This document shows positions 6,388-27,190 of a stretch of 64,000 bases of DNA, one piece after another. Location: NCBI RefSeq assembly GCF_037126435.1, contig NZ_CP147020.1, positions 1,843,293 to 1,907,292 on the forward strand. The letters run 5' to 3'. Within the stretch, counting starts at the first letter, position 1. Each line of letters begins with the position of its first letter. This DNA comes from Bernardetia sp. ABR2-2B (lineage in GTDB: Bacteria; Bacteroidota; Bacteroidia; Cytophagales; Bernardetiaceae). The notes beneath the pieces are model-generated. The model was not told the origin of the DNA and ran no database searches. It saw only the letters and a list, made by a program, of their open reading frames with translations. The translations under genes and the position numbers were made by a program.

Positions 6388-9300
6388 CTACTTTTTCCAT
6401 TCAAATCTACCTATTTCTATCTCATCATCATTTTCTTCCATTCCAGATTCCAATTGAAAGATAATTTCTTTTTGTGTTTGGTTTTTAGAACCATAGTTGA
6501 AATAAATAGTTGCTTTAAGTGTAGATGCTCCTGCTATTTTTTGGGTTCTGTCATCATAAAAATCTACTTTTATAATGTACTCTCCTTTGATAGCTTCCTT
6601 CAAAATATATTCTTCTGAACCATACCCATCTGTCAAGTCTTCAGTCAGTCGTCCTCCGTTTTGAGAAAGGTTATTAGAGTAGTATGTTTTTTCTCCTGTC
6701 GGTTCGATAATCCATAAATCAATATCTGTTTCAAGCGTATTCCAATCCAAAACTACTCGTATATCGACAGGTGTATTTTTGAATAAATTATTTTTTTGCT
6801 CTTCGCTTAGTTCTTTCTCTATTTTTTTATTGACTTTAGATAAATCTAACTTGTCTTTATGTAATGCAATCAGATTATTAAACTCTGTAAGGACTGTAGA
6901 TTTGAAATAAGGAAAAAGGTCTTCTAAGGTATCCCAGTTTTCGTCTTCTTTATCAAAATCCATTATCAAAACTTCATAAAATAAATCTAATGCTTTTTGA
7001 TAATTACCATTTTTTTGATGCGTTAAAGCCAAATCTCTATACGAATGTGGCTCGTTTGGACGGAGTTCTTTTACTTTCTCAAAAAGAAAAATAGCCGTTT
7101 CCATTTTTCCAAGTTCACTATATTTATAGCCTAGCATTTTCAAAAGCTCATAATTTTCTAACTCTAGTTCTACAATATTAGAAAGAATCTGAACTCCTAC
7201 TTCTTCTTCTCCATTCTGAATAAAGTAACTTCCCACACTAAGAAAAAAAGAAGGCGTAGAAGAATAACTTTCTTTGAGGGAAAGATAGGTTTCAAAACGA
7301 TTTTCCTTAGTAGCATTTTTGATAGAATCCATATAGGGTTCATCTGCACTCCATTCTTTTACTACTAATTTTGTAGTTTCTTTCTGTTGAATTTGTAGTG
7401 CTTTTTGAGTAGAATCAGGTAAAACATAGCCTTTTTCAGCAGCTTTTTTTGTAATGACTATGATAACACCATTTGCTCCTTTGCTTCCATACAGAGCCGT
7501 CGCATTTTCATTTTTCAACATACTGACAGATTTTACTTGCTCTGGATTAATCTGACTATAATCACTCTTTTCCATTGGAATTCCATCTACTACATACAAT
7601 GGTTCAGCATTTAGATTAACAGAAGAGTTTCCTCTAATTACTACATTTGAAGAAGAACCTGCGTTTCCATTTATTTGCACACCTGCTGCATTTCCTTGAA
7701 TGGATTGTACAAGTTGCTCTGATTGAATTGTTTGTACAGCATAACCCAAACTCTGGCTTTTTTCCTCAATTGCCATACCAGTAACCACAACGGACTCCAA
7801 AAGCTCCGAACTTTCTGTCATTATTACATCAACAATAGATTGATTACCTACGAGTGCTTCTCTTTTACTAAAACCAACAAATCTAAAAACAAGAATATCC
7901 TTTTCACTACAAACAATAGAATAATTGCCATCAATATCCGTTTGTGTTCTTATCGTTGTTCCTTTTATTTGTACAGTTGCACCAGGTAAAGTTCCTTCTA
8001 TACTAGATATTACTCCTGTTATAGTCTTATTGCGCTCATAGCCTAAAACCTCACTTTGATTAACTGAAACACTCTGATTTTGAGTAGTTTGATTTTCAGT
8101 TTCTTCACCAGAGTTATTTTCTTCTTCTTCAACCTCTTCAATTTCTTGCTGAGTTTCTTCTAAATTTTCAGTTATTGTTTCTGTTGTAGAATTTGTATTA
8201 TTTTCATCAGTTGTTTGTGTTGTTGTTGTGGTAGTTTGATTTGTTTTCTTAGGCTGCTCAGGTAATGAATCTTTTTTGTTTTCTGTCCACCATTCTATTT
8301 TTTCTTCATAGTCTGCAAGAGCTATTTTTATGATTTCCGTTTCTGTACTTGCAATTTTTTGAGTTTTTTGAGCTAATAGTTTTTCATACTCTTCTTTTAG
8401 TTCGGCAGGTGGCGAAATTTCATATTTGACATAATCTTCTATTCTATCCAAAACGATAAGTGAAGTATAGGGAGTAATCAAGCTATAATTTTTAGCTACT
8501 TCTACGATTTTGGTTTTATTTTGTCTTGTGTTTAGAGAAAACTCATCCACTTTTTTATTTGCCCAAATACGCTGAATAGAGGTTGAATTGTAATTTTTAG
8601 GAATTGTTATTTTTCTAGTTTCTAAAACTTGTTTTCCTATTCCAAACTGAATTTCTATTTCTGCATCTTTATCTGCACTTATTTTTCCTGCCAGTGAGAA
8701 AGATTTGTTTTTTTGTAGAGTTTGGGGCGTAATTGGATAGACTTCGCTTAGGATTCTGTTTTTGTATTTTGCGCCCAAAAACTGATAATTTTGAGATAAA
8801 AGTGCTTCTACGGCTTCTTTTTGTGTTTCATAAGAAAGATTGATATAATTCCCTCCTGTTTTTTGAGCTAAAGAATTTAGAAAAGGAGCATCATTTGTTC
8901 CACTAGAAACGATAGTATAAATAGTTTGTAGATTGTCTTTTTTAAGAGGAAAAGCATCATCTGAATAAGAAAGGTTTGAAATTCCGTCCGAAAAAAGAAG
9001 GATTTCATTTTGCTCTAAAGAAGGAAAATCAATGGCTTTTAAATCTGTCCCTCCATCATAAACTATACTTTCTAATTGCCTTTTAATTTTGATGATTTGA
9101 TTTTCAAAATTAGATTCATCTATCAAAAAATCATTCTGACTGACTATTCTATTATTGAACAAAATTAGTTTTAGATTTAAAGAATTATCTGACTTTTTTT
9201 GATTTATTCTTTCTAAATAACTTTCAAGAAGAGCTATTTCTTTTTCTGTTTTTCTCTCCTTACTAGAATGCGAAACATCCCACAAAACAGCAATAGAAGA

Positions 9301-11239: not shown

Positions 11240-11307
11240 AGGCAGTTATCAGTTGGAAACTATATTTCAATTACTTTAGTATAAAAATGACGTTTTTTAG
11301 TGAGAAA

Positions 11308-11345
11308 AATTCGTAATTCGTAATTTGTAATTCGTAATTCTAAAG
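11308..11345. repeat. Tandem heptamer repeat (GTAATTC)x5 with one variant. A CAGTTA(T/C)CAG element lies just before it at 11255-11270 and in reverse orientation at 11353-11368.
   Basis: Read directly from the sequence: ttcgtaattcgtaatttgtaattcgtaattc. Confidence 0.8.
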
Positions 11346-13704: not shown

Positions 13705-15783
13705 ATGGGAGATTTAAACGTAAGAATAGCAGATAATCAGCTTGACCTCAATGAGTTTACACGCTATTTGCTCAAAGATATTCAAGCTCTTGAACTCATG
13801 CTAAAAGAAGATTGCTTCGACGACGAACAAATGCACATCGGAGCAGAACAAGAAATCTGTTTGGTAGATGACCACGGAAAACCCTCTGCAACAGCCTTAG
13901 AAGTATTGGAAGCTTTAGGAAATGATAGCTTTACGACCGAACTAGCTCGTTTTAATGTAGAGTGTAATTTAGAGCCACATCCCTTCAAAGGAAATTGTTT
14001 TTCCAAATTAGAAGCCGAAACGATAAGCTTATTAAAGGCTTTGGAAAAAATTACTACCAAACATGATATAGATTATATTCTGACAGGAATACTTCCAACG
14101 ATTCGAAAATTTGACCTCACAACGGATAATATTACGCCTTTAGATAGATATTATGCCCTCATGAACTCGCTCAAAAAGCTACGAGGAAAGGAGACCTACG
14201 AACTCAAAATTGAAGGAATTGATGAGTTAAATACTTTGCATGATACGGCTTTAGTTGAGGCTTGTAATACTAGTTTTCAAGTTCATTTACAGATAAAACC
14301 AAAAGAATTTGTCTCAAAATACAATGTTGCAATGGCTATTTCTGCTCCTATTTTGGCAGCGGCCTGTAACTCTCCGATGCTTTTTAATAAACGCCTTTGG
14401 AGTGAAACTAGGATTGCACTTTTTCGCCAGTCAGTTGATACACGTATTTCGTCAGAACATTTGCGTGAGCGCAGTCCTCGTGTGATGTTTGGAAACAAAT
14501 GGCTTAAAGGCTCAATTTTGGATTTGTATCGTGAGGATATTATGCGCTTTAGAGTTTTGCTCACTACCGATATTGATGAAGATGCTCTCAAAATGGTACA
14601 GGAAGGCAAAACTCCAAAATTACGTGCCTTGAATGTTCATAATTCGACGGTCTATCGTTGGAATCGTCCATGTTATGGAGTAAGTCCGAATGGAAAACCA
14701 CATTTGAGAATTGAAAATCGTATTCTGCCAGCAGGTCCAACCGTAGTCGATGAAGTCGCAAATGCAGCTCTTTGGATTGGGGCAATGAATGCCTTTGAAG
14801 ATACTTATCCAGACGTAACTGAAATAATGGAATTTGATGATGCTCGTGCAAACTTTATGAATGTTGCTAGACACGGTTTGCGTGTAGATGTAAAATGGGT
14901 AAACGGTAAAAAAATGAGTGTTAAGAATTTACTTTTGAAAGAGATAATTCCGATGGCAAGAAAAGGATTACAGAAAGCAAAAGTTAGCCAAACTGACATT
15001 GATAAATACATGGATATTGTAGAAGCTCGTGTAAAATCCGAACAAACAGGCTCATCTTGGATGCTACAATCCTATTCGAAACTCATAAAAGAAAGCACAA
15101 AGGAAGAAGTAATGACAGCAATTACAGTTGCCATTGCAGACAAACAGAAAAGTAATCAGCCTATTCATACGTGGAAATTAGCCACCATCGATGATATTTC
15201 GGATTGGCAACCGTCAGATTTGTTGGTAGAAGAATTTATGGATACTGACCTTTTTACGGTTACAGAAGATGACGTACCCGAGTTTGCAGCCGATATTATG
15301 GACTGGCAACGTATTCGTTATTTGCCTGTCGAATGTCGTGATGGTGTTTTGGGAGGTTTGGTTTCTTCTCGTCTTTTGCTGCGTTACTTCAAATCTAATT
15401 CTCATCAAACAGAAATAAAAAATAATATCACTACGGTAAAAGATTTGATGATAACCAATGTACATACCGTTTCGCCAGAAACCAATATTCATGAGGCTAT
15501 GGATTTGATGCGCAAACAAAAAGTAGGTTGCCTTCCAGTAGTGGCAAATAATAATTTAGTTGGAATAATTACAGAAGCTAATTTCTTAAATATTACGGCT
15601 AGTCTTCTGAAAAGAATTGCAGAACGAAGAAGAAAACGTAGAGAAAAAAATGAAAAAAACGAGAAAATAAAAAATGCTTCAAAACCTCAAAATATAAGAG
15701 ATAGAGAAATCAAGATTGAGGGAGTAGATTCTTCTCAAAACCGTTTGGAAAATGCAATGGCTAATGGAGAAGAAGAGGAGTAA
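13705..15783 (+). CDS. Glutamate-cysteine ligase family 2 / carboxylate-amine ligase domain fused to a C-terminal CBS domain pair.
   Basis: 692-aa ORF. The N-terminal ~480 aa are GCS2-like (HIGAEQEICLVD, FQVHLQ). The C-terminus has two CBS-like modules (MDTDLFTV...; VHTVSPETNIHEAMDLMRKQKVGCLPVV) and a basic tail. Confidence 0.55.
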   Translation: MGDLNVRIADNQLDLNEFTRYLLKDIQALELMLKEDCFDDEQMHIGAEQEICLVDDHGKPSATALEVLEALGNDSFTTELARFNVECNLEPHPFKGNCFSKLEAETISLLKALEKITTKHDIDYILTGILPTIRKFDLTTDNITPLDRYYALMNSLKKLRGKETYELKIEGIDELNTLHDTALVEACNTSFQVHLQIKPKEFVSKYNVAMAISAPILAAACNSPMLFNKRLWSETRIALFRQSVDTRISSEHLRERSPRVMFGNKWLKGSILDLYREDIMRFRVLLTTDIDEDALKMVQEGKTPKLRALNVHNSTVYRWNRPCYGVSPNGKPHLRIENRILPAGPTVVDEVANAALWIGAMNAFEDTYPDVTEIMEFDDARANFMNVARHGLRVDVKWVNGKKMSVKNLLLKEIIPMARKGLQKAKVSQTDIDKYMDIVEARVKSEQTGSSWMLQSYSKLIKESTKEEVMTAITVAIADKQKSNQPIHTWKLATIDDISDWQPSDLLVEEFMDTDLFTVTEDDVPEFAADIMDWQRIRYLPVECRDGVLGGLVSSRLLLRYFKSNSHQTEIKNNITTVKDLMITNVHTVSPETNIHEAMDLMRKQKVGCLPVVANNNLVGIITEANFLNITASLLKRIAERRRKRREKNEKNEKIKNASKPQNIRDREIKIEGVDSSQNRLENAMANGEEEE

Positions 15784-15867
15784 ATCTTAAAACCTTATTC
15801 TGTCACAAGAAATAAAACAGCTCTTGCTTGGCTTTGCTGAGTGAGAGGTTTTATTATATTTGAGTTT

Positions 15868-15990
15868 TTAGGTCAAGTCTGAAGACTTGTAAAATTGATA
15901 GGTCATAGTCATCGCTGCGCTAAAGACAACGCCCAATACTTAATTTTTTTGTTTGGCTATGGAAGACTACGAACACGGTAGAAATAAAAA
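15868..15990 (+). repeat. R1 interspersed repeat copy (core caagtcTTCAGActtg palindrome followed by gataggtcatagtcatcgctgcgctaaagacaacgcccaa).
   Basis: Matches at least 7 other copies in the window (17400, 32800, 34737, 36225, 45415, 45950, 46700). Confidence 0.8.
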
Positions 15991-16113
15991 TCTAAGAATC
16001 TTCAGCCCCCTATGGTTTACTTTTTCAAAAAATCTTTGAGTGATGAATTAAAAAAAGAAATTTTGGGTTACTTTTAAATAATCCAAAATCTCATTTAGCA
16101 AACTAATATCATT

Positions 16114-16698
16114 ATGTGTTATTCAGTCTATATCGCAACAAATCAAAAGTTAGAAGAGGGAAGTTTCGTACCCAATGAAACAGATATATATTTTTCTAAA
16201 ATTAGTGATGCAGAAGAAGTTCGTCTACGCTCTAAATTTTCTAAAGAGAATATTTATTATGTAGGTTCGGATACAAATTGCTCTTGTGGGTTAGCTTTTG
16301 ATAGTAGTGATTTTGGAAACCCAAAAGAAGATATCAATAAAAAATCGCCTACAAAATTTATTGAGTTTTTACAGAAAGCAACATTAATAGAAAGTGTACA
16401 ATGCTATTGTTGTTGGGAAGGAGATGAAGTGACTGATATTGAAAATTATAAAGACATAAATATTCAGAAAATTTCATTAGAAAAAAATTATTTCAGCTTC
16501 GAAGAAAATGTACGTATTACTTTTATCAAAACCTATGAACCAAAACTAAGAAATGAAATAGTGAAAATTCTGCAAGAAAATGAACAAGGAAGTCTATTAA
16601 AAGCCATAAAGTTTTTGAGAAACCAAACAAAATCAGGCTTAATGGATGCTAGAGTCTATGTAGAATATCTAGCTATTGATTTGAAAAAATCAGAATAG
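16114..16698 (+). CDS. Hypothetical protein (ORFan) bracketed by R1/R2 repeats.
   Basis: 194-aa ORF with no motif I recognise. It sits between an R1 copy and R2 copies. Confidence 0.4.
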   Translation: MCYSVYIATNQKLEEGSFVPNETDIYFSKISDAEEVRLRSKFSKENIYYVGSDTNCSCGLAFDSSDFGNPKEDINKKSPTKFIEFLQKATLIESVQCYCCWEGDEVTDIENYKDINIQKISLEKNYFSFEENVRITFIKTYEPKLRNEIVKILQENEQGSLLKAIKFLRNQTKSGLMDARVYVEYLAIDLKKSE

Positions 16699-16730
16699 AT
16701 TATTTTATCAACCTTAGAGCCCCTGCGTTC

Positions 16731-16950
16731 TTGTTGGTGTTCCCATTTACAAAAACCCATAAAGCCGTTGTTGTGTCTTTAGTTTCGGTTTGCCGTTACG
16801 CTGACCAACAACAGAAACACGCATGAAACTATGGTAAACATTTTTTATATTTAACTTTTTTGTTTCGATAGTAAGTTCATAAATTGTCCGTGTATGTTTA
16901 TTGTTGGTCATCACAACGGCATTGCCGAAGTTAAAGACCAACAAGAACGC
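16731..16950. repeat. Two R2 repeat copies: 16731-16822 in reverse orientation and a degenerate forward copy at 16880-16950. Both contain the hairpin gttgttggtc-N25-gaccaacaac and the motif ccaacaagaacg.
   Basis: Match to copies at 17496, 32925, 33781 and 33955. Confidence 0.8.
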
Positions 16951-16971
16951 AGAGATAACACTTCTAAATAA

Positions 16972-17358
16972 ATGAAATCAATATTTTTGCATCTCATTAT
17001 TGTCATAATACTATTATTTGTAATAGTAGATAATGAACCAATACGTTCTTTTATTTTTGACGTAAAAACAGATAAAGTAGTAGTCATAGATCAAGGACGC
17101 AAATATAAGAGTCAATTTGCTAAAGTATCACATATATATAAAGGAAAAGAATATATAAGAGAAATACATTTAGATACAAATTTTTATAAATTCTATAATA
17201 CTGGAGACAGCATGAAGATATCATACCTAAAAGATAAACCAGATGATGCTATCTATCATAAAGGTCTTCCTATATACTTTCTTGCAGCATTAATACTTGG
17301 TTTAACTATATTTATGTCTACTCTATTTATTAAAATTTATCATTATTTTAAGAAGTAG
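16972..17358 (+). CDS. Small hypothetical membrane protein (ORFan) bracketed by repeats.
   Basis: 128-aa ORF with an N-terminal and a C-terminal hydrophobic helix. Confidence 0.35.
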   Translation: MKSIFLHLIIVIILLFVIVDNEPIRSFIFDVKTDKVVVIDQGRKYKSQFAKVSHIYKGKEYIREIHLDTNFYKFYNTGDSMKISYLKDKPDDAIYHKGLPIYFLAALILGLTIFMSTLFIKIYHYFKK

Positions 17359-17399
17359 CCCTCGTTCGTCGTAGTTTTCCAATAGCCAAACAAAAAAAA

Positions 17400-17590
17400 T
17401 GAATGTTGGGCGTTGTCTTTAGCGAAGCGATGACTACGACCTATCAGTTTGGCAAATCTTAGATTTGCGAGTGTCAGTATTTTTGTAATTACTGCGTTCT
17501 TGTTGGTGTTCCCATTTGCGAAAACCCACAAAGCCGTTGTTGTGTCTTTAGTTTCGGTTTGCCGTTACGCTGACCAACAACAGCGAGTAG
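17400..17590 (-). repeat. Composite R1 (17400-17500) plus R2 (17496-17590) repeat in reverse orientation.
   Basis: Reverse complement matches the R1 consensus (taattacaaaaatact...caaatctaagattt...gataggtcgtagtcatcg) and the R2 hairpin. Confidence 0.8.
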
Positions 17591-17625
17591 GAGGCATTGA
17601 ATAACTAGCTTTTAAAGTTTATAAA

Positions 17626-18519
17626 TTAGTAACGATTCAAATAATTACGAATATCCATTCCCCAGTTGAGTTTTTCACGAAGGGTTTTGAGAAAACTATC
17701 GCCATCTAAGCGCACCATCTTACAGGTATAATTACATCTTCTGACAGCAAGTTGAATATTACTATCTACTTTACGAGAACGAGAATCTAAAGAAACTAAA
17801 AAGTTTTTACTTCTTCCTTCTATCTCAAAAGCAATTACACTTTCTGTCGGAACAATGAGAGGACGAACATTTAAGTTATGAGGACTAACAGGAGAGATAA
17901 TAAAATTATTGGATTGAGGAACAACTACGGGACCTCCGACGCTCAAAGAATAGCCTGTCGAACCAGTAGGCGTAGCGACAATCAGACCATCTGCCCAATA
18001 CGAATTTAGATATTCGCCATCAATATAGGTATGAACCACAATCATTGAAGAAGAATCTCGCTTCATAATTGCAAATTCGTTGAGCGCAATATTTACGCCT
18101 TTAAACAAATCCCTATCAGCTTCCAATTCTAATAAAATACGTTCGTCTAGCGTATAATGACCTGCCATAAGACTTTCCAATGCACTATGAATTTGTTCTT
18201 TTGAAGTTGTCGCTAAGAAACCCAAACGCCCTGTATTTATTCCCAAAATAGGAACATTTTGGTGTTGTACGATGGTTGCAGCCTCCAAAAAAGTACCATC
18301 TCCACCCACACTAAGCATCAAATCTACATTAGAAAGATGATGAGGAGCAGAAAAAGTACCTACAATATTAGGACGAAAATTAATAGAATGAAGTAGCCTA
18401 TCAAAATCCTTTGAAATGATAATCTCTACTCCATAATTTTCTAGTTCTGTAAAGATTTGCTTTATAAAAAAAAGTTTGCTTTCGGCAATGTCTTTACTGT
18501 GTATGGCTACTTTCTTCAA
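17626..18519 (-). CDS. nadK: NAD(+) kinase.
   Basis: 297-aa ORF with the GGDGT motif (SVGGDGTFLEAA) and NE/D-type conserved C-terminal motifs. Confidence 0.8.
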   Translation of the reverse strand: MKKVAIHSKDIAESKLFFIKQIFTELENYGVEIIISKDFDRLLHSINFRPNIVGTFSAPHHLSNVDLMLSVGGDGTFLEAATIVQHQNVPILGINTGRLGFLATTSKEQIHSALESLMAGHYTLDERILLELEADRDLFKGVNIALNEFAIMKRDSSSMIVVHTYIDGEYLNSYWADGLIVATPTGSTGYSLSVGGPVVVPQSNNFIISPVSPHNLNVRPLIVPTESVIAFEIEGRSKNFLVSLDSRSRKVDSNIQLAVRRCNYTCKMVRLDGDSFLKTLREKLNWGMDIRNYLNRY

Positions 18520-18610
18520 AATAAAAAGGAGATTTTAAATTTATTGTTCTTTGAAATAATGAAGTTACCAAATTACTATAAAAAAATCATTATTCGTAAA
18601 TGAATACTAA

Positions 18611-19780
18611 TTAATTTGGTTTTTTGATTTTATCTCCTACTTTAAGTCCCTTCAAAACTTCAATATTTATTCCATCTGAAAGCCCTAAAGTAAGATAGCG
18701 TTTTTCAAAAACATTTTCACTTGTTTGAACTTCTACATAAAAAGCATCAGATTTTTGATTTGAGTCTTTAGTTTCTGTTTTGGTAGAATCTATCTTGTTT
18801 TCTTCTTTTTTATCTGATTTATTGTTTTTTTCTTTGTTTTTATCAGCCGATTGTAACCACGCTTCTTCAATTACAATTACATCATCTTTTCTTTCCAAAA
18901 CAATATCTGCATTAGCACTATAACCAGCACGAACAAATTGATTTTCTTTAAGTTCTACGTCTGCTTTTATCGGAAACTTAATTGCTCCTTCTTCTTCAAT
19001 GCCTTTTGGTGCGATAAAATCTAGTTTCGCATCAAATTTTTCATTGTCGATTGCTCCAATTGTCAAGACCAAATCCATTCCTTTTTTTAATTTTCCTACT
19101 TCTGCCTCATCTACTTTTCCTTCAAAAATCATATCACTCAAATCTGCAATGGTTGCAATCGTTGTTCCTTCATTAAATGTATTACTTTCAATTACGTTTG
19201 CCCCTTCTTTGATAGGAACGTCCAAAATAATTCCACTCGTAGTTGCTTTTACTAATGTTAGTGTGCTAGAAGAACGGCTAGAAGTTCCTTCACGAACAAT
19301 AACCAAACTCTCTGCAGCTGCATTTACCTGATTTTTCGCCAAATCGTAATCGTCTTTTGCAAGCATATATTCACGCTCTGCAATTACGCCATCTTCAAAA
19401 AGCTGCTTTTGTCTTTTCATTTCACGCTCACGCATATCTAAGGTAAGCTTTGCTTGTTCTAAGTTATTCTGAACATTAGTAAGGTTAGTCATATTCGGAA
19501 TTACTTTTATTTTAGCAATTACATCTCCTACTTTTACTGTTTGCCCAGCTTCAAAAAAAATTTTGTCAACAATACCCGAAACGGCAGGTTTTACAGTTAC
19601 TTCTTTCAGAGGAACAATCGAACCTGTTGCAACCGTTTTCTTTATTATAGAATCTTTTCTTGGAGAAACCAATTCTATATCTTCTTGTACGTCTTCTTCT
19701 TGATTAACAAAATAATAAACAACAAAAACTCCCATAGCTATAAGTAAAAGCACAAAGGAAGCGATAAAAATTTTTTTCAT
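18611..19780 (-). CDS. Efflux transporter periplasmic adaptor subunit (HlyD/MacA-like membrane fusion protein).
   Basis: 389-aa ORF with an N-terminal TM anchor, a coiled-coil hairpin region (LEQAKLTLDMREREMKRQKQLFEDGVIAEREY), a biotinyl/lipoyl-like beta domain and a lysine-rich tail. Confidence 0.6.
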   Translation of the reverse strand: MKKIFIASFVLLLIAMGVFVVYYFVNQEEDVQEDIELVSPRKDSIIKKTVATGSIVPLKEVTVKPAVSGIVDKIFFEAGQTVKVGDVIAKIKVIPNMTNLTNVQNNLEQAKLTLDMREREMKRQKQLFEDGVIAEREYMLAKDDYDLAKNQVNAAAESLVIVREGTSSRSSSTLTLVKATTSGIILDVPIKEGANVIESNTFNEGTTIATIADLSDMIFEGKVDEAEVGKLKKGMDLVLTIGAIDNEKFDAKLDFIAPKGIEEEGAIKFPIKADVELKENQFVRAGYSANADIVLERKDDVIVIEEAWLQSADKNKEKNNKSDKKEENKIDSTKTETKDSNQKSDAFYVEVQTSENVFEKRYLTLGLSDGINIEVLKGLKVGDKIKKPN

Positions 19781-20156
19781 AATAATAGTGAGTTAAATTA
19801 AAATCAAGAGTTATAAAATAAGATGTACAGAGAAAAGAAGTTAAAATATAAAATAGGATTTTGAAATGGCTAATTTACACAAAACTTATTCCTATACAAG
19901 ATAAATAGACTACTAAAAGGCGTTAAAAATAAAGATGCTTGTATTAAAAACAATAAAAACGAAACAAACAGAAATAACTTTTCTTGGTTAGACAGAAATT
20001 GAGACAAAACTTTATATCTAAATTAATAATCCCTTATGTTGGCACTATTTTGGCAAATCTTTGTAATATGAGTAGAAGTTATAAATTTATTTTCTATTCA
20101 TAATAAAGATAATGACAAACTATTCTATCAAAAAACGCTGCTAAATTTTTATCACT

Positions 20157-20570
20157 ATGAAATCACTATTTTTTATTTGGGTTACCTTCGGACTTGCTTG
20201 GGGAGTTTTTTCAGCTTCTCCAACACTTGCACAGACAGAAGATGAGGTAATCAGCACAGCCAAAACAGCCATTGGAGCAGCTTCTACGAAAGAATTAGTC
20301 AAACTTTGTCACGATGCTATCGAAATAGGATTAGGCGACCAAAAGGCAACATACAGTCAATCACAAGCCGAATTTGTATTGAAAGATTTTTTTACAAAAA
20401 ACCCAGCCAAACAGTTTGAATATATCCATAAAGGAGCTTCAAAAGAAGGTCTGAAGTATGTGATTGGAAAATATACAGCAACAAACGGAAATACGTTTAG
20501 AGTTTATATTTTGGTAAAATCAACACCAAACGGTTTTAGAATTGACACGCTAGACTTCAGTAGAGAATAA
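20157..20570 (+). CDS. Small secreted protein (DUF4783-like).
   Basis: 137-aa ORF with a signal peptide (MKSLFFIWVTFGLAWGVFSASPTLAQ). Confidence 0.4.
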   Translation: MKSLFFIWVTFGLAWGVFSASPTLAQTEDEVISTAKTAIGAASTKELVKLCHDAIEIGLGDQKATYSQSQAEFVLKDFFTKNPAKQFEYIHKGASKEGLKYVIGKYTATNGNTFRVYILVKSTPNGFRIDTLDFSRE

Positions 20571-20625
20571 AAATAAAAAATCTTTGTCAGAACGCCCCCT
20601 CTCACTTTGAGATTTTAGACTAAAA

Positions 20626-20660
20626 AAGCCTTTTTCGTTTGAAAAAGGCTTTTTTAGTGA
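20626..20660. terminator. Bidirectional rho-independent terminator (aagccttttt cgtttg aaaaaggctt) flanked by T-runs, between convergent genes.
   Basis: 10-bp perfect stem with a 6-nt loop and T tracts on both strands. Confidence 0.55.
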
Positions 20661-20677
20661 TTTTTTTTAATTTAAAA

Positions 20678-21442
20678 TCAGAATTTATAAGAAATTCCTA
20701 GATGCAGATTGATTTGATAAAAACGCATTTGCCAAATTGTATTTTTATTTCCTACTGAATTGGACAAATATTTCAATGAACTTTCTCCAAAAACTCCCCA
20801 ATGATTAGTTAGTTGATAATGACTTTGATGGAAACCTGAAAAGAATGGGATTACTTGTTTGGCACTTGGAAATTGAGCTGTACTTTCATAAATCTCATAA
20901 TTGGTAGTTTCATTTGTAAGTAACAAAAGCCCTGTTTTTACTCCTATTTGATGTTTCCATTTTTTAGATTGGAATAAAGAATAAGAGATTCCTAAATCTA
21001 TTTTAAAATAAGTGCTTTCATAATTTATAGTTTGGGTTTGTAGGCTATCTCTATTTCCATAAATAGGCTGTATAGATACATGATTTGTAGAAATTTTGGT
21101 GGCTATGTAGTTAGTTGGTGTAGAATAATAATTTCCTCCAAATTGATACTTAACTGTATTTTTCCATTTTAAAATACCTATATCAGTATGTAAACTCCAT
21201 TTTTGAGATAAGTTTCTTTCTGCCATAAAACCAAATGTAAGACTCTGACGCTCACTGAGAGTTTGTTTGTCATTAAGCATTCTTACATAATGTTTGTCAA
21301 TTGGATTTGCTGCAAAATGTTTGTAGGTCATTCCAAAACCTGTGTAAGAGGCAATTTTCCATTTTGAAAGCATATTTGATTCTTTGTTCAAACTCTTACT
21401 CCATTGACAAAACTTTAATTTTTTGATCAAATTTAGTTTCAC
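20678..21442 (-). CDS. Outer-membrane beta-barrel-like protein whose 5' end runs into the IS4 element. It is probably N-terminally truncated or disrupted.
   Basis: 254-aa ORF ending GISYKF (aromatic C-terminus typical of OM barrels). The first ~12 codons lie inside the IS left end, and no signal peptide follows the internal Met at 21373. Confidence 0.35.
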   Translation of the reverse strand: MKLNLIKKLKFCQWSKSLNKESNMLSKWKIASYTGFGMTYKHFAANPIDKHYVRMLNDKQTLSERQSLTFGFMAERNLSQKWSLHTDIGILKWKNTVKYQFGGNYYSTPTNYIATKISTNHVSIQPIYGNRDSLQTQTINYESTYFKIDLGISYSLFQSKKWKHQIGVKTGLLLLTNETTNYEIYESTAQFPSAKQVIPFFSGFHQSHYQLTNHWGVFGESSLKYLSNSVGNKNTIWQMRFYQINLHLGISYKF

Positions 21443-22484
21443 TAGTCATTGGATTATTGAGTATTTTTTTAATTTCTATTAATCCATATCTGAAAAAAGA
21501 GTATTCATTATATCCATTTGAACAGACTCTTATTTTTGTTTTTTTATGTTTCCATTCTCCTACTTTGTAACACCAAACAAAGGCAATGGAACACAAAGCA
21601 ATTAATTTAGCTATTTTATTTGGTTCTGTTAATTTTGTATTTTCTAAGTTAAAACCTTGTGATTTTAGTGCTTTAAACAACGTTTCGATTTCCCAACGTT
21701 GTTTATAAATTTCAAAAATATTATCCAATAAAACAGGTGATGCTAAATAAATATATCCTTTTTGTGTTCGACTTACAGATAAATATACCTCTGCTTCATT
21801 GACTACAAATGTTCCATCTAGTTGATAGGTTTCTGAAATCGAAAGCCCTCTACACCATGCTACAATAGACTTTGTTTTCCCTTTTCTAGTAGCTTTAAAG
21901 TTAGATTTTATACGCATTACAAAATCAAATTTTTTTGTAGCTAAATAGAAAAACCATTTTTTACCTATAAACTCTCTATCTGCTACAAGAGCAGTAATAG
22001 ATAAATTAGGAAATTGATTTAAGAAATCTTCTATCAAATCAATTCGTTGTTGAGTAGCTGAATTTCCTGTCCTCGAAAGTACAGACCAACAAAGAGGAAT
22101 AGATACCCCTTTATGAGCTGCTGAGAGAAGCAAAATATTAATATGCTCTTTTCCAACTTTCCAATTCGTTCTATCCAAACACAGTACGATATTTTCCCAT
22201 TGTTCAATGCCTTCTAAGGAAATAATCAAATTAGTAATTGCTTGAAAATCAAGCTCATAATAATTTAAAAAGCGTTCTATACGACGTAAAGAAGAACTGT
22301 ATTCTACATTCCTTTCAAACGCAGTTGCAATTTGAATTAAACCTCCTAGACCTACCTTTATAACAGCTATTACAAAAAGACCTATAAATTGAACTCGGGC
22401 TAAATGAAACCCTTTTAAATGAGAAGATAAAACACTAACTAATTTTGTAACTTTACCACTAGAAGCATACTTTGCTTTCGCCAT
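21396..22484 (-). CDS. IS4-family DDE transposase.
   Basis: 362-aa ORF with the IS4-type C-terminal motif YKQRWEIETLFKALK. Confidence 0.7.
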   Translation of the reverse strand: MAKAKYASSGKVTKLVSVLSSHLKGFHLARVQFIGLFVIAVIKVGLGGLIQIATAFERNVEYSSSLRRIERFLNYYELDFQAITNLIISLEGIEQWENIVLCLDRTNWKVGKEHINILLLSAAHKGVSIPLCWSVLSRTGNSATQQRIDLIEDFLNQFPNLSITALVADREFIGKKWFFYLATKKFDFVMRIKSNFKATRKGKTKSIVAWCRGLSISETYQLDGTFVVNEAEVYLSVSRTQKGYIYLASPVLLDNIFEIYKQRWEIETLFKALKSQGFNLENTKLTEPNKIAKLIALCSIAFVWCYKVGEWKHKKTKIRVCSNGYNEYSFFRYGLIEIKKILNNPMTSETKFDQKIKVLSME

Positions 22485-22551
22485 AATTGAGAAAAATTTT
22501 GTGAGAAACTCAATTATGGCTTTTTTTTATCTAAATTTAAAATCTTTTGTC
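21405..22551 (-). mobile_element. IS4-family insertion sequence (boundaries approximate).
   Basis: Imperfect terminal inverted repeats near 21405 (gacaaaactttaatttt) and 22551 (reverse complement gacaaaagattttaaattt) enclose the transposase gene. Confidence 0.5.
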
Positions 22552-23318
22552 AGAGGACTGAGGTTCAAACTACCTTTTTTATTATCATTTGATACAATTT
22601 TGATAGAGTCTATTTGCATTTCAAAAAATGGGTCTGCATTTGTTTTTATTTCTCCAAGAGACTTTTCTTCTAATACAAATATCATTTTTTTATCTTCTTG
22701 AGTAACGGCAGTTATTTCTGCTTGTGTTTCTTGCAAATTTTCTTGAGTTATATTTACTACCTCGTTATTTTCATCATCACTACTTAAGTCAGTTGTCAAA
22801 CCAATATTTTTACTAACATTTTCTTGTGTAGTTGCTTTTTGAGAAAAGCGAGAAGACTTTGTAATAACTTTAGATGAAGTAGTTTCATTTGATAATGTTT
22901 TTTTTGTATTAGATATAGAATTATTAATCTGATTTTCTGATACATTAGACTTTGTATTTTTATTTATATCAGACTGAATGGTTGAGTTTTCTGTGGCAGA
23001 ATTAGTATCTGATTTTTCTATATCAGAAGTCATGTTTGTTTCTTTTTTTACTGTTTGGTTAGTAGTGTTGCAAGTAAAGTTAGGAGAAGATATATTATTT
23101 TCAGATGAAATAATATATAATCCAATGCCAAGACTTGAAACTAAAATCAAACCTAAAGCTAAAAACCAGTAGAGAAATTTTGGTCTTGAAGATTTATCTA
23201 GTTGCTCAGAAATTTTGTCCCAGCCATCAAGAGGAGGCAGAGATTCCCATTCATTAACTTTGGAAAAGCTGTTTTTCCATTCAGAATCATTTTGAGAGTT
23301 GTGTATATTGTTGTCCAT
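22527..23318 (-). CDS. Putative anti-sigma factor with a single TM helix and an S/T/N-rich extracytoplasmic region.
   Basis: 263-aa ORF immediately downstream of the ECF sigma gene. It has a cytoplasmic N-terminus (W/E-rich) followed by a TM segment (FLYWFLALGLILVSSLGIGLYI) and a low-complexity tail. Its 3' end abuts the IS right end. Confidence 0.5.
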   Translation of the reverse strand: MDNNIHNSQNDSEWKNSFSKVNEWESLPPLDGWDKISEQLDKSSRPKFLYWFLALGLILVSSLGIGLYIISSENNISSPNFTCNTTNQTVKKETNMTSDIEKSDTNSATENSTIQSDINKNTKSNVSENQINNSISNTKKTLSNETTSSKVITKSSRFSQKATTQENVSKNIGLTTDLSSDDENNEVVNITQENLQETQAEITAVTQEDKKMIFVLEEKSLGEIKTNADPFFEMQIDSIKIVSNDNKKGSLNLSPLTKDFKFR

Positions 23319-23333
23319 AAAACAAAAATGTTT

Positions 23334-23882
23334 TTAGCGTATGTATTGAGTGATTTTATAGTTGGTTGCCAATATTTTTCGTAATGCTTGTTTGGCTTTT
23401 GTAAGCTGAGAACGTGAAGTGCTTTCTGAAATACCTAATAATTTGCCAATATCTTCATGCTTGTATCCTTCTATGATATACAAATTAAAAACTACTCGAT
23501 ATCCTTGAGGTAATTCTCTAATCAACTTGATAAGTTCTTCAGCAGAAAGCATATCAAGTGCAGTATCTTTTGTGTCAGACTCATACATAAGTGCTTCATC
23601 AGAGAGATGCCCAAAATGCTTTTTTTGTTTGTGATAAATATCAATAGCTTTATGAACAGCAACTTGTCTTATCCAACCTCCAAGAGCTTCAAATTTTTTG
23701 ACTTGATTGATTTTCTTGAAAATGATTAGAAAAACTTCTTGCAACATGTCTTCTGCTTCTTCTCTGCTCTTAGCATAACGGATACAAGTTGTCATGACCT
23801 TTCCTGCATAAAGCCTGTATAGAGCTTCTTGAGCAGGACGAGAGCCTTTCAAACAACCTGAAAATATTTCTTTCTCTGACAT
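23334..23882 (-). CDS. RNA polymerase ECF-type sigma-70 factor.
   Basis: 182-aa ORF with a region 2 motif (DMLQEVFLIIFKK) and a region 4 HTH (EGYKHEDIGKLLGISESTSRSQLTKAK). Confidence 0.8.
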   Translation of the reverse strand: MSEKEIFSGCLKGSRPAQEALYRLYAGKVMTTCIRYAKSREEAEDMLQEVFLIIFKKINQVKKFEALGGWIRQVAVHKAIDIYHKQKKHFGHLSDEALMYESDTKDTALDMLSAEELIKLIRELPQGYRVVFNLYIIEGYKHEDIGKLLGISESTSRSQLTKAKQALRKILATNYKITQYIR

Positions 23883-23995
23883 AGATAATTTTGGTAGATT
23901 CTTTTTTTGTAGAATATTGTTAGAACATCAAACCTCTACAAACGACAATAACAGCACTACAAAGTAATGCTGTTTTTTTGAACAAATGAAAAAAG

Positions 23996-25111
23996 TTAAT
24001 TGACGACGACTTCAGCCGTATGTTCTTCTCCAGTTATTCGATTCCTCAATGTATAGAAAAAACTAAAAGGCAGAGGAGTATCCGTTGCTACAAAAAATAC
24101 AGGCTTATAGAATGGGTATTGACCTAGAGCGTGAGTTGCTCCAGTAATTCCATTCCAATCTACACTCAATTCCCAATCAAAACTTGAGTAATCACAAATT
24201 GAATCATTTTCTAAGTAAGGAAGGTAATAGTAGGTTTGTCCCACAACAAAATCATTAAAATACAAACTATCTACTTCATAACTAACAGATTCAAATGGAA
24301 CTGTATTAGTGCTATCATTTTCTATGCCTACCACTCTCTCAAAAGGCGAAAAAAATGTAGGTAGGTCTGCTGCTATAAACAAATCATTTTGAAGTGAAGA
24401 AACACACGTTGTATCTGTATTTGCACTAACCTCAAAACTTATTTTACCAACATAAGCAGCACTATTGTTAGAGTCATTAGGTCGTATATAATATAAAAAA
24501 TCTTGTCTGCCTACAAAATTGCTAGGAGGAAAATAGTTTATTTTCGTTGTTCCTTCCTCAAAAAATATTTCTATACCTTCTTGAATAGAATTGCTACCTT
24601 CAATCTCTTCTATATAGATCATTTCAGATTCGGTATTACAAAGAATATCATTACTCATAAAATCCAAACTATAAAGAGCTGTATTTTTTTGAGTATAATA
24701 TATATCTTCTTGAGTTACTACTTCACAAGTAACAGAGTCGGGAGTATATGCAATTTGCAACTTCCCATCTTTTCCATTGAGGCGATATCCAAATTCATCA
24801 GTTTTTGGATTGTTGCTATCATTTGCACGATATAAAAGAAGACCTTCTTCATTAATTTCAACTGTTCCAAAAGAAGGATTAGCTGTTAAAATTACATTAG
24901 TAGCAGTTGATACCTTGAATAAATGTACTAAATCTATGGCGCATAATGCCATGTTTTCAGCTTTAGAAAAACTCACACTACTTTCTGTAAGTTCTTGAAT
25001 TGGCTCAAGGACATCATCTTCTGATGTATCACAAGCTGTAATATAGAATGAGCTGATAAGTAGAGATGCAATTAGAAATAATTGCGAATAACGTTTTCTG
25101 AATGTTTGCAT
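23996..25111 (-). CDS. Hypothetical lipoprotein.
   Basis: 371-aa ORF with a signal peptide plus lipobox (LLISSFYITAC). Confidence 0.4.
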   Translation of the reverse strand: MQTFRKRYSQLFLIASLLISSFYITACDTSEDDVLEPIQELTESSVSFSKAENMALCAIDLVHLFKVSTATNVILTANPSFGTVEINEEGLLLYRANDSNNPKTDEFGYRLNGKDGKLQIAYTPDSVTCEVVTQEDIYYTQKNTALYSLDFMSNDILCNTESEMIYIEEIEGSNSIQEGIEIFFEEGTTKINYFPPSNFVGRQDFLYYIRPNDSNNSAAYVGKISFEVSANTDTTCVSSLQNDLFIAADLPTFFSPFERVVGIENDSTNTVPFESVSYEVDSLYFNDFVVGQTYYYLPYLENDSICDYSSFDWELSVDWNGITGATHALGQYPFYKPVFFVATDTPLPFSFFYTLRNRITGEEHTAEVVVN

Positions 25112-25385
25112 AATTTAAAAAATTAAAAGGTTTAATGTTCTATCTATAAAGAGTGAATCTTCTATAATTATGCTGCTTAATGGCTCATTATTTTTTTAAA
25201 TTATTTTTAATTTTGAATAATTTCAGCTTTAAATTGTTGATTTTTAAGACTTTAGGGTTGTTTTTGGAATTGTATTTTTTTGCAAAAAATAAAATTAAAG
25301 TTATTTTTTATAGCAATTTTGAAAGAGAATATAGACCTTTGTAAAAAATATATCAAAAAGTAAGTGGTAGAAAATCAATAAGAAA

Positions 25386-27095
25386 ATGGCAAAGAAAAAA
25401 TCCAAAGCAAAAATAATTTCGAATAAAGAAACACAACCAGCTTCGAATGTAAATTCAAAAAAAGCAACCCCAAAAAAGCAAATAGAACCTATAAAAGAGG
25501 ATAATAATCTGCTTTTTTCGCCCATTTCTACAAAACTAGCTTTGATTCTGACACTTGTTGCAGCGTGTCTGTATTTTGCTTTTTCTTTTGTTTCCGAAGG
25601 GTTTTATCAGCAAGATGAAGCTGTACACTATGTTTCGATGAAGCGTTTTTGGTTTAATCCAAATAGAATTTTGAGCAACTGGGAAAAACCTGGATTTAAG
25701 CTCGTTTATGCCTTGCCTTCACTTTTGGGTGTTCATTTTGTTACTTTTTTTAATTGTCTTTTGGCTGCTTTTTCTGGATTCTTTGCTTTTAAATTGGCAC
25801 AGAAAATAAACATTAAGATTCCTGCTCTAGCTCTTATTTTCTTGCTTACCCAACCGTTTTGGATTGGTCTTTCTTTTCGTAATTACTCTGAACTTTTAGC
25901 TGCCTTCCTTTTGATTTTGGCTGTCTATCTCAATGAAGACAAAAAATATGCTTTTGCTGCCCTTGCTGCTTCGTACATTGTCTTTATTCGTCAAGAATTT
26001 TATCCATTTTTGGCTCTCTATTTTTTCTTTTTGCTTTATAAAAAACAATGGCTTCCTGCACTTCTGACAGGTGTTTTTCCATTAGTTCACAACTTTTGGG
26101 GGGCAGCTATTACAGGCGATTTTCTGTATTTATTAAATCAAGTTTTGAAGACAAGTAGTGAAATAGGCGACCAATATCCAAGACAAGGTTTCGAACATTA
26201 TTTCTTGATGTCAGCAACTGTTTATGGTGGAATTATTATTACACTTATTGTGGCTTATTTTACGTTGAAAGCATTTCAAAAGAAAATTCCTCACGTTACA
26301 GTTGCTATTTTACCAACACTTTACTTTCTAATGTACTGTGTTTTTAATATTCAGTCTGTTCCTATTGGACCTGCAACGGCTGGAAACTTGCGTTATTTGA
26401 TTATTGTTGCTCCTCTTTTTAGTGTAATGGCTGCTTTAGCTGTTGAGGAATATCGAAGTACAAAAGATGCTTGGAAGGTAATTTATGCACTAATTCCGTT
26501 ATCTATTTTGGTAGGAATTTATATGACATATCCTGATAATCAGATTATGCTTTTGGATGAAAACTATGCAGAAAGAATGGCAAGGGCAGGAAGGGAGTTT
26601 CAAGTAGAACGTTATTTTGCGCCTCTAATTGCTGTTTTGGGAACTATTATTATTCTTATTATTGGTCTTTCATTTTCTCAAGCCAGACTTGCTTTTGCTG
26701 TTTTTGCTGTTTTTATGGCACTCATTACGCTTAAGCCAAAACCACTTTCAGAAGAAGATTCAAATGTGAAGAGTATGGCAAAATGGTATGAAAACTTTAC
26801 TGAAAAATATGGACAAACACCTATTTTGGTAAACCATCAACTTTTTTATTACTATTTAGATGAAACACCTGAAAGTTTTGAGATTACACCAACTTCAATA
26901 GACTCTACGACAGTTGCTAATCTGCCACAAAATGGTCTTATTTTTTGGGATTCTCATTATTCGTATCGTCCAGAACAAAACAAAGCAATGCTTAATTACA
27001 AATATTTCTTAGAAAACCCTCAAAAATTTGATAAAATACAAGAGTTTTGGGCTGCTGATAGAAGTTTTGTAGGATTTGTTTTTCGTAAAAAATAA
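25386..27095 (+). CDS. Polytopic membrane protein, possibly a GT-C fold glycosyltransferase (PMT/ArnT-like).
   Basis: 569-aa ORF with a lysine-rich N-terminal tail and at least 10 predicted TM helices. The family assignment is tentative. Confidence 0.35.
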   Translation: MAKKKSKAKIISNKETQPASNVNSKKATPKKQIEPIKEDNNLLFSPISTKLALILTLVAACLYFAFSFVSEGFYQQDEAVHYVSMKRFWFNPNRILSNWEKPGFKLVYALPSLLGVHFVTFFNCLLAAFSGFFAFKLAQKINIKIPALALIFLLTQPFWIGLSFRNYSELLAAFLLILAVYLNEDKKYAFAALAASYIVFIRQEFYPFLALYFFFLLYKKQWLPALLTGVFPLVHNFWGAAITGDFLYLLNQVLKTSSEIGDQYPRQGFEHYFLMSATVYGGIIITLIVAYFTLKAFQKKIPHVTVAILPTLYFLMYCVFNIQSVPIGPATAGNLRYLIIVAPLFSVMAALAVEEYRSTKDAWKVIYALIPLSILVGIYMTYPDNQIMLLDENYAERMARAGREFQVERYFAPLIAVLGTIIILIIGLSFSQARLAFAVFAVFMALITLKPKPLSEEDSNVKSMAKWYENFTEKYGQTPILVNHQLFYYYLDETPESFEITPTSIDSTTVANLPQNGLIFWDSHYSYRPEQNKAMLNYKYFLENPQKFDKIQEFWAADRSFVGFVFRKK

Positions 27096-27147
27096 TCTAC
27101 TAAAATGACTAATTTTTCTCGTAGTTGCTTTGATAATAAATACAGAT

Positions 27148-27190
27148 TTTCCTCAGAATTGAGTCGTTAAACCTAATTCTGAGGAAAGAT
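27148..27190. terminator. Hairpin terminator (cctcagaatt ...14 nt... aattctgagg) between convergent genes.
   Basis: 10-bp perfect inverted repeat read directly from the sequence. Confidence 0.45.

Follow-up and report, generated by a model that had tools for sequence, protein, structure and literature searches.

Imperfect palindromes lying outside genes in mosaics are known from Escherichia coli, as repetitive extragenic palindromic sequences (REPs) and bacterial interspersed mosaic elements (BIMEs) with their transposase TnpA_REP, and from Pseudomonas, as REPINs (REP doublets forming hairpins). They flank the gene of a REP-associated tyrosine transposase (RAYT), are hot spots for insertion sequences (ISs) and are linked to genome plasticity (PMC3116915). 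Subclass 2.6 of TnpA_REP (Quentin et al. 2018, PMC6006769), which is RAYT group 5 of Bertels et al. 2017 (PMC5581495), occurs mostly in Bacteroidetes. Its members have the motifs NH[LIV]H, WQ and YIH[QN]NP and a mean length of 179 aa, but they have no typical REPs, their guide-recognition region is not conserved, and the secondary structures flanking them have been called "atypical" (PMC6006769). Here we describe two families of structured repeats, R1 and R2, in 64,000 nucleotides (hereafter the window) of the 5.30-Mb chromosome of Bernardetia sp. ABR2-2B, a member of Cytophagales in the phylum Bacteroidota (assembly GCF_037126435.1, contig NZ_CP147020.1, positions 1,843,293 to 1,907,292).

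A sequence-only reading of the window had noted short open reading frames (ORFs) between R1 and R2 copies at three places, and had taken them for cassette-like arrays of a possibly undescribed system of gene capture or shuffling. In our analysis R2 is quite probably the cognate REP-like hairpin of a subclass 2.6 RAYT, and the repeats have piled up in permissive gaps with no cassette mechanism involved. RAYT-REP systems have been studied almost entirely in gamma-proteobacteria. The repeats described here form a REP/REPIN-like population that belongs to an already published class of RAYT, in a phylum that has received little study; R2 being tied to such a RAYT, the system is not an undescribed one, and the locus reveals no new gene-capture machinery.

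The R2 hairpin and its probable transposase

Both repeat families are genuine at the three loci first noticed (15868-17590, 32800-34145 and 45415-46760). The 38-nt R2 core, with at most 3 mismatches, has 5 matches in the window and the 25-nt R1 core has 4, against 0.00 expected for each in dinucleotide-preserving shuffles. The motifs quoted for them were correct as well: palindromes caagtcTGAAGActtg and caaatcTAAGAtttg, hairpin gttgttggtc-N25-gaccaacaac, and ccaacaagaacg. Mapping with iterated nhmmer profiles, complemented by repeat search and BLAST, gave about eight copies or fragments of each family, grouped in four clusters. When one genome of each species was scanned for a 32-nt R2 core, 23 loci (L001-L023) emerged outside the window. 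They come from five further Cytophagales genomes, those of Bernardetia sp. OM2101 (CP170094), a Flexibacter metagenome-assembled genome (MAG) and three MAGs of uncultured Cytophagales, with 1-11 matches to the exact 32-mer per genome. Because these loci were chosen by their R2 match, counts and densities on them are biased. Their flanking DNA does not align with the window, only the repeats do; it is thus R2 and not its context that has been kept between species, in at least six Cytophagales genomes, that of the window included. In the window and the 23 loci together, the profiles match 58 R2 and 26 R1 copies, all of them lying between ORFs or overlapping ORF ends by a few nucleotides.

The R2 core reads GTTGTTGGTC-ATCGTAACGGCAAGCCGAAACTAAA-GACCAACAAC and is followed by CGGC. 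Its fold comprises 15 pairs, a 10-bp outer stem (sometimes with a one-base bulge) and the inner pairs GT/AC and CGG/CCG, and folding of R2 as single-stranded DNA returns the same hairpin. Over 43 distinct copies, 98.3% of the hairpin cells are paired, and compensatory changes occur in 5 of the 15 pairs, for example GT..AC to AC..GT in seven copies and G..C to T..A in five. None of 500 shuffles reached these values, and controls with slid partners were only 21-40% paired. The R2 hairpin is under selection, and its covariation fits DNA and RNA structure alike. One loop variant, GGCAAACCG, is private to the R2 copies of the window. Of 18 close pairs of neighboring R2 copies, 12 are head-to-head (-,+) and 72-90 nt apart; such pairs were seen in the window (16723-16952) and six further genomes. 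Head-to-head inverted doublets with constrained spacing are the organization that defines REPINs.

In two of the R2-selected loci, R2 copies enclose a gene for a protein of 182 aa, the two proteins being 89% identical to each other. At L016, from a MAG, R2(-) lies upstream and R2(+) downstream of the gene. The same arrangement is found in Bernardetia litoralis DSM 6794 (CP003345, locus L026), with an IS between the upstream hairpin and the gene. At L018 the gene is likewise flanked by R2; in the upstream copy (4831-4900 of this locus) the flank is in (-) and the asymmetric loop in (+) orientation, so the loop appears flipped relative to its flank. The 182-aa protein matches NCBIfam NF047646, "REP-associated tyrosine transposase" (E=5.6e-21, 74.9 bits), and Pfam Y1_Tnp (23.3 bits, cut-off 23), and its similarity to E. 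coli TnpA_REP (PDB 4ER8) is weak (E=0.11). The L016 protein carries the motifs MPNHIHLLW, FWQRN and YIHNNPV. Judged by motifs, length, host phylum and atypical flanking structures, the putative R2-flanked transposase matches subclass 2.6. A homologue search with this RAYT returned more than 2,400 relatives, several of which are named "REP element-mobilizing transposase RayT" in their source. One relative, P0030, is a transposase of Bernardetia sp. ABR2-2B and is 88% identical to the RAYT; the genome of the window thus encodes this RAYT (WP_338763585.1).

The window itself holds a direct trace of the transposase gene. Positions 33929-34107 (+) align base-for-base with the 3' flank of the RAYT gene in the B. 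litoralis and MAG loci; here the final 12 nt of the RAYT ORF (GAATTTGAATAA) run on into its downstream spacer and then into R2(+) at 34006-34107. The segment is the right-end relic of a RAYT element, an internally deleted derivative. Strain MNP-M8 (CP147012) has a second RAYT paralogue, 59% identical, whose flanking hairpin, GTTGTCGGTGT-CGCTACGCTTAAA-CACCGACAAC, differs from R2 but is related to it, and this pairing of a diverged transposase with a related hairpin is consistent with co-evolution of the hairpins with their transposases. A singleton REP-like hairpin of the MNP-M8 paralogue type is present in the window at 40766-40805 (+), just 3' of rpoC, with the sequence TTGTTGGTGT-CACTTTGCTAAA-ACACCAACAA-CGGC; it flanks no small ORF. 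At the B. litoralis locus L026, a further repeat family, AATACATAGT..CACTTGCGAAGA.GCAAGCGAGAGCAATCTTGCGAGC.ACAGCAGG, was observed at 4770-4860 and 6700-6765, outside both RAYT-flanking R2 copies, and a gene for an Imm35 immunity protein lies about 1.4 kb upstream.

Both repeat families have received ISs. In three loci of one uncultured Cytophagales MAG (L002 4830-6200, L014 1918-3270 and L018 5571-6925), an IS110-family element of the bridge-RNA type (NF033542, E=7e-47) occupies the identical position in the R2 3' arm, GACCAAC/AACGGC (the slash marks the junction). Its left junction is GACCAAC/CTTTATATTAGC, its right junction ...CATAGAATTC/AACGGC, and there is no target duplication, which looks like site-specific targeting of the R2 hairpin. 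In the window, an IS4-family IS (34788-36225, +) with inverted repeats 34788-34810 and 36203-36225 sits in the exact center of an R1-type palindrome; its transposase is broken into ORFs 34737-35645 and 35721-36224. The two halves of the split R1-type copy remain at 34733-34787 (-) and 36226-36266 (-), and a 9-bp target duplication, GTCTTAGAC, is present at 34779-34787 and 36226-36234. Specific insertion of IS110-family and other ISs into REPs is well documented (PMC1525189, PMC11208160), and the insertions into R2 and into the R1 palindrome match this behavior. The IS110 case resembles the REP-targeting elements IS621 and ISPpu9/10 (PMC1525189, PMC11208160) in its exact position in three loci and its lack of target duplication; it is found in a relative, not in the window.

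These data also bear on the proposal that R1 and R2 are not mobile at all and act for the host as terminators, attenuators or small-RNA genes. A T-run follows the hairpin in many R2 copies, so a secondary terminator role of these copies is possible; a second copy of the 3' arm further downstream could pair alternatively, and the covariation is compatible with an RNA structure. REPs of other bacteria, too, act secondarily as terminators or mRNA stabilizers (PMC3733652). A primary host function is nevertheless highly improbable. Either orientation toward neighboring genes is seen among the repeats, as are tandem piles and inverted doublets; a transposase gene lies between copies, one of which even takes in the 3' end of that gene; ISs insert into the repeats, and orthologous gaps in close relatives lack them; and an Rfam scan of the entire window matched no family.

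If R2 is the cognate hairpin of the RAYT, its spread can be sketched by analogy with characterized RAYTs and IS200/IS605 transposases. E. coli TnpA_REP and TnpA of IS608 act on folded single strands. The Bernardetia RAYT would recognize the folded hairpin on single-stranded DNA, and would cut and rejoin the strand beside it. Such activity would spread hairpins, above all as REPIN-like head-to-head doublets, into intergenic gaps. R1 might be mobilized as a second repeat of the same kind or as a module of the same composites, with a presumed dependence on the RAYT. The repeats would then accumulate in a few permissive gaps, draw in other ISs and offer dispersed homology for recombination, and would thereby come to mark gene-order junctions and sites of strain-specific small genes. 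Since they would mark such junctions, the pattern "repeat, ORF, repeat" would be a by-product and not a mechanism.

Several observations weigh against this explanation. The RAYT gene is not within the window; R2 flanking was read in relatives, and for ABR2-2B the connection consists of the presence of the gene and the relic. The NF047646 score is just below the curated cut-off of 80. R2 has no GTAG-type tetranucleotide at the foot of its hairpin, where TCT or TTT stands before GTTGTTGG and CGGC after the 3' arm; GTAG is found only about 20 nt upstream of the hairpin, in one flank type. Folding gave z-scores of only about -2 and, for one R1 copy, no advantage over shuffled sequence. In B. litoralis a single 90% cluster contains two or more RAYT copies, a multiplicity that recalls ISs more than it does the RAYTs of gamma-proteobacteria, which are single-copy. 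An R1-flanked RAYT was not found, and R1 patterns had no matches in two metagenome scans. Finally, two indels of the window, 20616-25505 and 38704-40715, have neither R1 nor R2 at their edges; the repeats are therefore not the sole source of plasticity.

Set beside described systems, the closest likeness is to subclass 2.6/group 5 REP-RAYT pairs: a Y1/HUH protein of 182 aa with NHIH, WQ and YIHNNP, inverted flanking hairpins, intergenic copies, a Bacteroidota host and REPIN-like doublets. The likeness to E. coli REP/BIME and Pseudomonas REPINs covers the traits named at the outset, whereas hairpin sequence and size differ and the copy number appears much lower, as judged by exact 32-mers. Unlike classical REPs, the R2 hairpin is about 45 nt long, has an inner stem and no GTAG foot, and the units are modular, 100-150 nt in length. 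Unlike in described REP-RAYT systems, two to three or more related hairpin families coexist, and the RAYT is multi-copy in B. litoralis. With IS200/IS605 elements and with palindrome-associated (PATEs) and miniature inverted-repeat transposable elements (MITEs), the system shares the transposase superfamily, subterminal hairpins and an internally deleted derivative (33929-34107); in contrast to IS200/IS605, it has no tnpB or regular passenger gene, and the copies lack a consistent left-end/right-end pair. Subclass 2.6 hereby gains a defined repeat, with a sequence, a hairpin supported by covariation, doublets, sister families and site-specific targeting by an IS110-family element, and R2 offers a substrate for testing DNA recognition by RAYTs that do not use GTAG.

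R1 and the composite repeats

R1 is not restricted to the window, as 11 of the 23 R2-selected loci, in other species, contain it. Its palindrome, CAARTCT(G)AAGAYTTG, exists in two versions, and among copies with matching arms nine have G..C and nine A..T. The palindrome is followed by a hairpin module, GTCGTAGTC-ATCGCTKCGCTAAA-GACWACG, a T-run, and GGAAsACTACG, which repeats the 3' arm. R1 and R2 have a common plan: a stem, a loop that starts with ATCG and ends with CTAAA next to the GTC/GAC end of the stem, a GC-rich foot, a T-run, and GGAAsAC with a second 3' arm. The two families are also found fused, with an identical junction, at 34006-34152 of the window and at L019 of another genome. 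R1 folds less well than R2 (z = -2.5 for one copy, z = 0.2 for another). This weaker folding, the missing R1-flanked RAYT and the empty metagenome scans lower our confidence in its assignment relative to that of R2; R1 probably represents either a second REP-like family, sister to R2, or one module within composite units.

R1 might otherwise be an independent MITE of some unrelated DDE transposon, merely sharing permissive gaps with R2. Its own palindrome, which keeps its pairing through the change from G..C to A..T, would suit a MITE, as would the weaker folding, the lack of an R1-flanked RAYT and the occurrence of R1 without R2 in the third locus of the window. We consider this unlikely. The loop motif GTC-ATCG...CTAAA-GAC and the order of modules are common to R1, R2 and the hairpin of the second RAYT paralogue, and the R2-R1 fusions have the same junction in two genomes. 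Inspection of filled and empty sites, which was not a systematic search, revealed neither terminal inverted repeats nor target site duplications of DDE type, and the ends of the IS4-family element of the window are, by inspection, unrelated to R1 and R2. The two families also share their distribution: both are missing from loci fetched independently of the repeats, and nearly half of the R2-selected loci hold R1.

Another small repeat, TCRCAAGAAATAAAA..hairpin..GAGTGA, was observed beside R1-type copies at 15803-15844 and 36275-36316, which hints at an additional module of the composite repeats.

Repeat copies and gene order in the window

The first locus follows a CBS-domain gene. An R1 composite of about 210-250 nt (15731-15978) is inserted just after its stop codon, and R1 itself is mapped to 15850-16010 (+), with palindrome CAAGTCTGAAGACTTG, hairpin module GTCATAGTC-ATCGCTGCGCTAAA-GACAACG, a T-run and GGAAGACTACG. 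ORF194 (16114-16698, +; each small ORF is named by its length in amino acids) is followed by a full-length R2 at 16723-16820 (-), composed of hairpin, T-rich spacer and GGGAACACCAACAAGAACGCAG. This copy is the left member of a head-to-head doublet; the right member, after a 72-nt gap, is a short form at 16892-16952 (+) with the compensated loop variant ACAACGG..GAAGTT. Behind ORF128 (16972-17358, +) lie R1 at 17360-17475 (-), with palindrome GCAAATCTAAGATTTGC and 93% complementary over 76 nt to 32825-32900, and R2 at 17492-17583 (-), which is 97% identical to 16723-16814 and adjoins the 3' end of the NAD kinase gene.

The second locus begins with R1 at 32807-32931 (+), downstream of the Y-family polymerase (IMS) gene. 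The full-length R2 that follows at 32976-33074 (+) is preceded by the flank GGGAAGTTAGTAGATTTGTG, and the same flank follows the RAYT gene in relatives. ORF220 (33116-33778, +) separates it from another R2 at 33786-33881 (+), to which nhmmer adds a partial R2 3' module at 33881-33933 (+). The RAYT-element relic comes next, and an R1 3' half at 34106-34152 (+) is fused to its R2; the junction, CAAGAACGTAGACAACGCTTAAC, is the one recurring in the genome of L019. ORF183 (34122-34673, -) and the IS4-bearing R1-type copy complete the group. The third locus has R1 alone. An R1 variant at 45421-45588 (+), whose additional 5' module includes the hairpin GTCAAGTAA..TTACTTGAC, precedes ORF54a (45662-45826, -). 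A second variant at 45954-46111 (+), 90-93% identical to 45421-45546, precedes ORF143 (46116-46547, -), and a truncated R1 at 46700-46791 (-), 95% complementary over 55 nt to 15850-15904, adjoins the 3' end of a 980-aa Type-ISP-like gene.

Three copies had escaped the sequence-only reading: the R1-type copy split between 34733-34787 and 36226-36266, a decayed R2 hairpin at about 36370-36420 (-), and, at 40766-40805, the singleton hairpin of related type. Three ORFs, of 88, 65 and 62 aa (32846-33112, 16747-16944 and 17343-17531), run across R1 or R2 with a codon score of about -0.05 bits, and are probably not genes; automatic gene callers will probably list ORFs of this sort, and in Cytophagales annotation, ORFs called across these repeats should be treated as spurious.

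Gene order differs between genomes at all three loci. In the relative Wsw4-3y2 (CP147017), ORF194 stands directly behind the CBS-domain gene and is followed by genes for proteins of 50 and 191 aa, the gene for the ribonucleotide reductase small subunit, and rpoC; this stretch of 20.6 kb contains neither R1 nor R2. The R1 composite behind the CBS-domain gene is absent there. In ABR2-2B a 19.8-kb segment (16717-36478), missing in relatives, stands between ORF194 and the 50-aa gene. R2 lies near each of its edges: the copy at 16723 is 6 nt inside the left edge, 16717, and the decayed hairpin stops some 60 nt short of the right edge, 36478. The NAD kinase gene (window 17626) and the orthologue of the 980-aa gene (window 46870) are direct neighbors in two other Bernardetia genomes, with only 16 nt and no repeats in between. 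Given these uninterrupted orders in relatives, all three repeat loci are gene-order junctions between genomes, and the repeats thus stand at rearrangement junctions between closely related strains. Neither R1 nor R2 occurs in some 100 kb of sequence from loci of relatives that were picked independently of the repeats.

The repeats may have had a part in causing the rearrangements, by recombination between dispersed copies. Candidates are the inverted R1 pairs 15850/46791 (95% over 55 nt) and 17393/32900 (93% over 76 nt). A single inversion was rejected as the source, as the orientations of the blocks need more than one event. A composite transposon formed by the 15.4-kb block between R1(-)R2(-) at 17360-17583 and R1(+)R2(+) at 32818-33074 was rejected too, its module order not being mirror-symmetric. 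That the repeats themselves are mobile would follow by analogy with REPs, and the presence or absence of the composite at 15731-15978 in ABR2-2B and Wsw4-3y2 suggests the same.

The two indels without R1 or R2 have contents of their own. The 4.9-kb block 20616-25505 is absent from the orthologous place in L027 and L029 and contains a DDE_Tnp_1 transposase (21396-22484), an extracytoplasmic function (ECF) sigma factor (23334-23882) and three other genes. The 2-kb segment 38704-40715 (region 38665-40754), absent at the site in Wsw4-3y2, encodes HHH_3 and HTH_3 proteins and is bracketed by two copies of a terminator-like hairpin, AAAAAAGCCTTTCAAAA...TTTTGAAAGGCTTTTT.

Genes between the repeats

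The six small ORFs reported between the repeats do exist there, and their in-frame codon usage is coding-like (0.22-0.39 bits per codon, compared with 0.51 for long genes and about -0.05 for ORFs overlapping repeats). Searches of all six in Pfam, NCBIfam and PADLOC gave no significant match and no immunity families. ORF194 is not an ORFan, since it has 27 homologue clusters; ORF128 has 5. An immunity-protein reading of the window ORFs was rejected as unsupported, with no match in these three resources.

ORF194 encodes a member of a Cys-rich conserved family. It is 100% identical to a hypothetical protein recorded for ABR2-2B and 91% identical to the Wsw4-3y2 protein, a version of 141-143 aa occurs in Rufibacter and other Bacteroidota, and the gene stands next to the 50-aa gene also in a more distant species, at 56% identity. 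In Wsw4-3y2 and at L025 it is present without repeats. Since repeat-free relatives show it beside the same neighbors, ORF194 is the ancestral occupant of this site, where the repeats came later; it is a bystander gene, not a cassette. In this family residues M1-C2, D24, K41-F42, C56-S57-C58-G59, Y98 and C100 are invariant. The AlphaFold model is confident (predicted local distance difference test score, pLDDT, 91.6), and its N-terminal domain matches no solved structure. The C-terminal 50 aa or so resemble the L7/L12 C-terminal domain and are 38% identical (paralogous) to a 54-aa ORF at 36484-36648, its direct neighbor in relatives.

ORF128 is a small protein with two transmembrane segments and belongs to a rare family, its five homologue clusters coming from 1.84 billion representatives. 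Its closest homologue (75% aa identity) has a UvrD helicase gene on one side, a 173-aa gene on the other, and neither R1 nor R2 next to it. ORF220, ORF183, ORF143 and ORF54a have a counterpart in none of the fetched loci; the first three are strain-specific, and ORF220 has, like the others, coding-like codon usage and no family match, as has ORF183.

What lies between consecutive repeats was tabulated over 30 loci. Genes flanked on both sides are heterogeneous: RAYT (twice), an IS110 transposase, SMI1/KNR4 and ankyrin proteins, a 581-aa gene, and a 277-aa protein that was called methyltransferase-like from its sequence by eye. In a crude ORF census, flanked genes had a median length of 194 aa (n=15) and unflanked ones 235 aa (n=194), p=0.19; the tabulation thus gave mixed genes with no significant size bias.

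These data bear on the cassette or cargo hypothesis, according to which R1 and R2 are recombination sites (attC-like, or left and right ends as in IS200/IS605) and a recombinase or the RAYT moves the genes between them. The pattern "repeat, ORF, repeat" does recur in the window and in other genomes, and both units of the first locus consist of R1, a gene and an inverted R2. Flanked genes elsewhere include SMI1/KNR4 and ankyrin proteins, which resemble accessory immunity proteins, and an ORF for an Rhs tip adjoins R1 copies in L020. The neighbors of ORF128 differ in another genome, and the RAYT itself lies between inverted R2 copies, so that DNA bracketed by hairpins can in principle be a unit. 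All the same, we judge the hypothesis very unlikely. ORF194 is ancestral in relatives without repeats, and the ORF128 homologue has none; order and orientation of the repeats differ in loci 2 and 3; no homologue of a window ORF was found beside repeats at another locus; the flanked genes show no significant size bias, and no integrase was found among the window ORFs scanned; and many copies stand alone or form tandem piles that enclose no gene. Comparison across relatives confirmed variable gene order and, for ORF194 and ORF128, revealed no gene-plus-repeat unit. Of the suggestion of MITE-mediated gene shuffling, the MITE-like, non-autonomous mobile DNA stands, and the cassettes do not. Nothing indicates that genes and their repeats travel together.

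Repeat order and orientation are inconsistent between units. As in integron attC arrays and in rAID-1 clusters (bioRxiv 10.1101/471110), small genes are separated by structured repeats, and immunity-like genes are flanked in other genomes. Unlike in integrons, no adjacent tyrosine recombinase was found, the ORFs lie on both strands, and each gap has 1-4 repeats in mixed orientation. Whereas attC sites are conserved in structure only, R1 and R2 copies are 80-98% identical in sequence. rAID-1 clusters have a 5' XerD-like recombinase, at least two co-directional genes, low GC and homology to immunity proteins; here there is no XerD-like gene, no immunity match and no skew in GC, which is about 30-34%, similar to the surroundings.

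A milder version would have the hairpin clusters serve as landing pads or mobilizable brackets, where the RAYT, or recombination between hairpins, relocates segments with one small accessory gene. We regard this as unlikely. If true, it would mean low-level REP-driven gene shuffling at a few Bernardetia junctions, a RAYT-based functional analogue of cassette arrays.

The statement that no integrase or recombinase is visible nearby was right in part. Pfam or NCBIfam scans of window ORFs with a length of at least 100 aa revealed neither a tyrosine nor a serine recombinase, but two DDE-type transposases are nearby, the IS4-family pseudogene (34737-36224) and the one at 21396-22484. Eight further ORFs of at least 100 aa were annotated only via orthologues in relatives, 18611-19780 also via Pfam. 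No tRNA genes were found in the window, which is ordinary chromosome and includes rpoC and the genes for RecR, RNase Y, NAD kinase, ribonucleotide reductase, a Y-family polymerase and the like.

Two observations concern other parts of the window. A single 661-aa ORF at 54619-56604 begins like a C-5 cytosine DNA methylase, of which it has the N-terminal part (residues 3-189), and also contains an entire HpaII-type restriction endonuclease domain (312-660); it is either a fused or a rearranged restriction-modification gene. A pentamer-like motif, TTCGTAATTCGTAATT (AATTACGAATTACGAA on the opposite strand), forms short intergenic runs at 11305-11341, 52837-52910, 58183-58219 and 63591-63627, and occurs also at 7685-7720 of L031, a related metagenomic contig.

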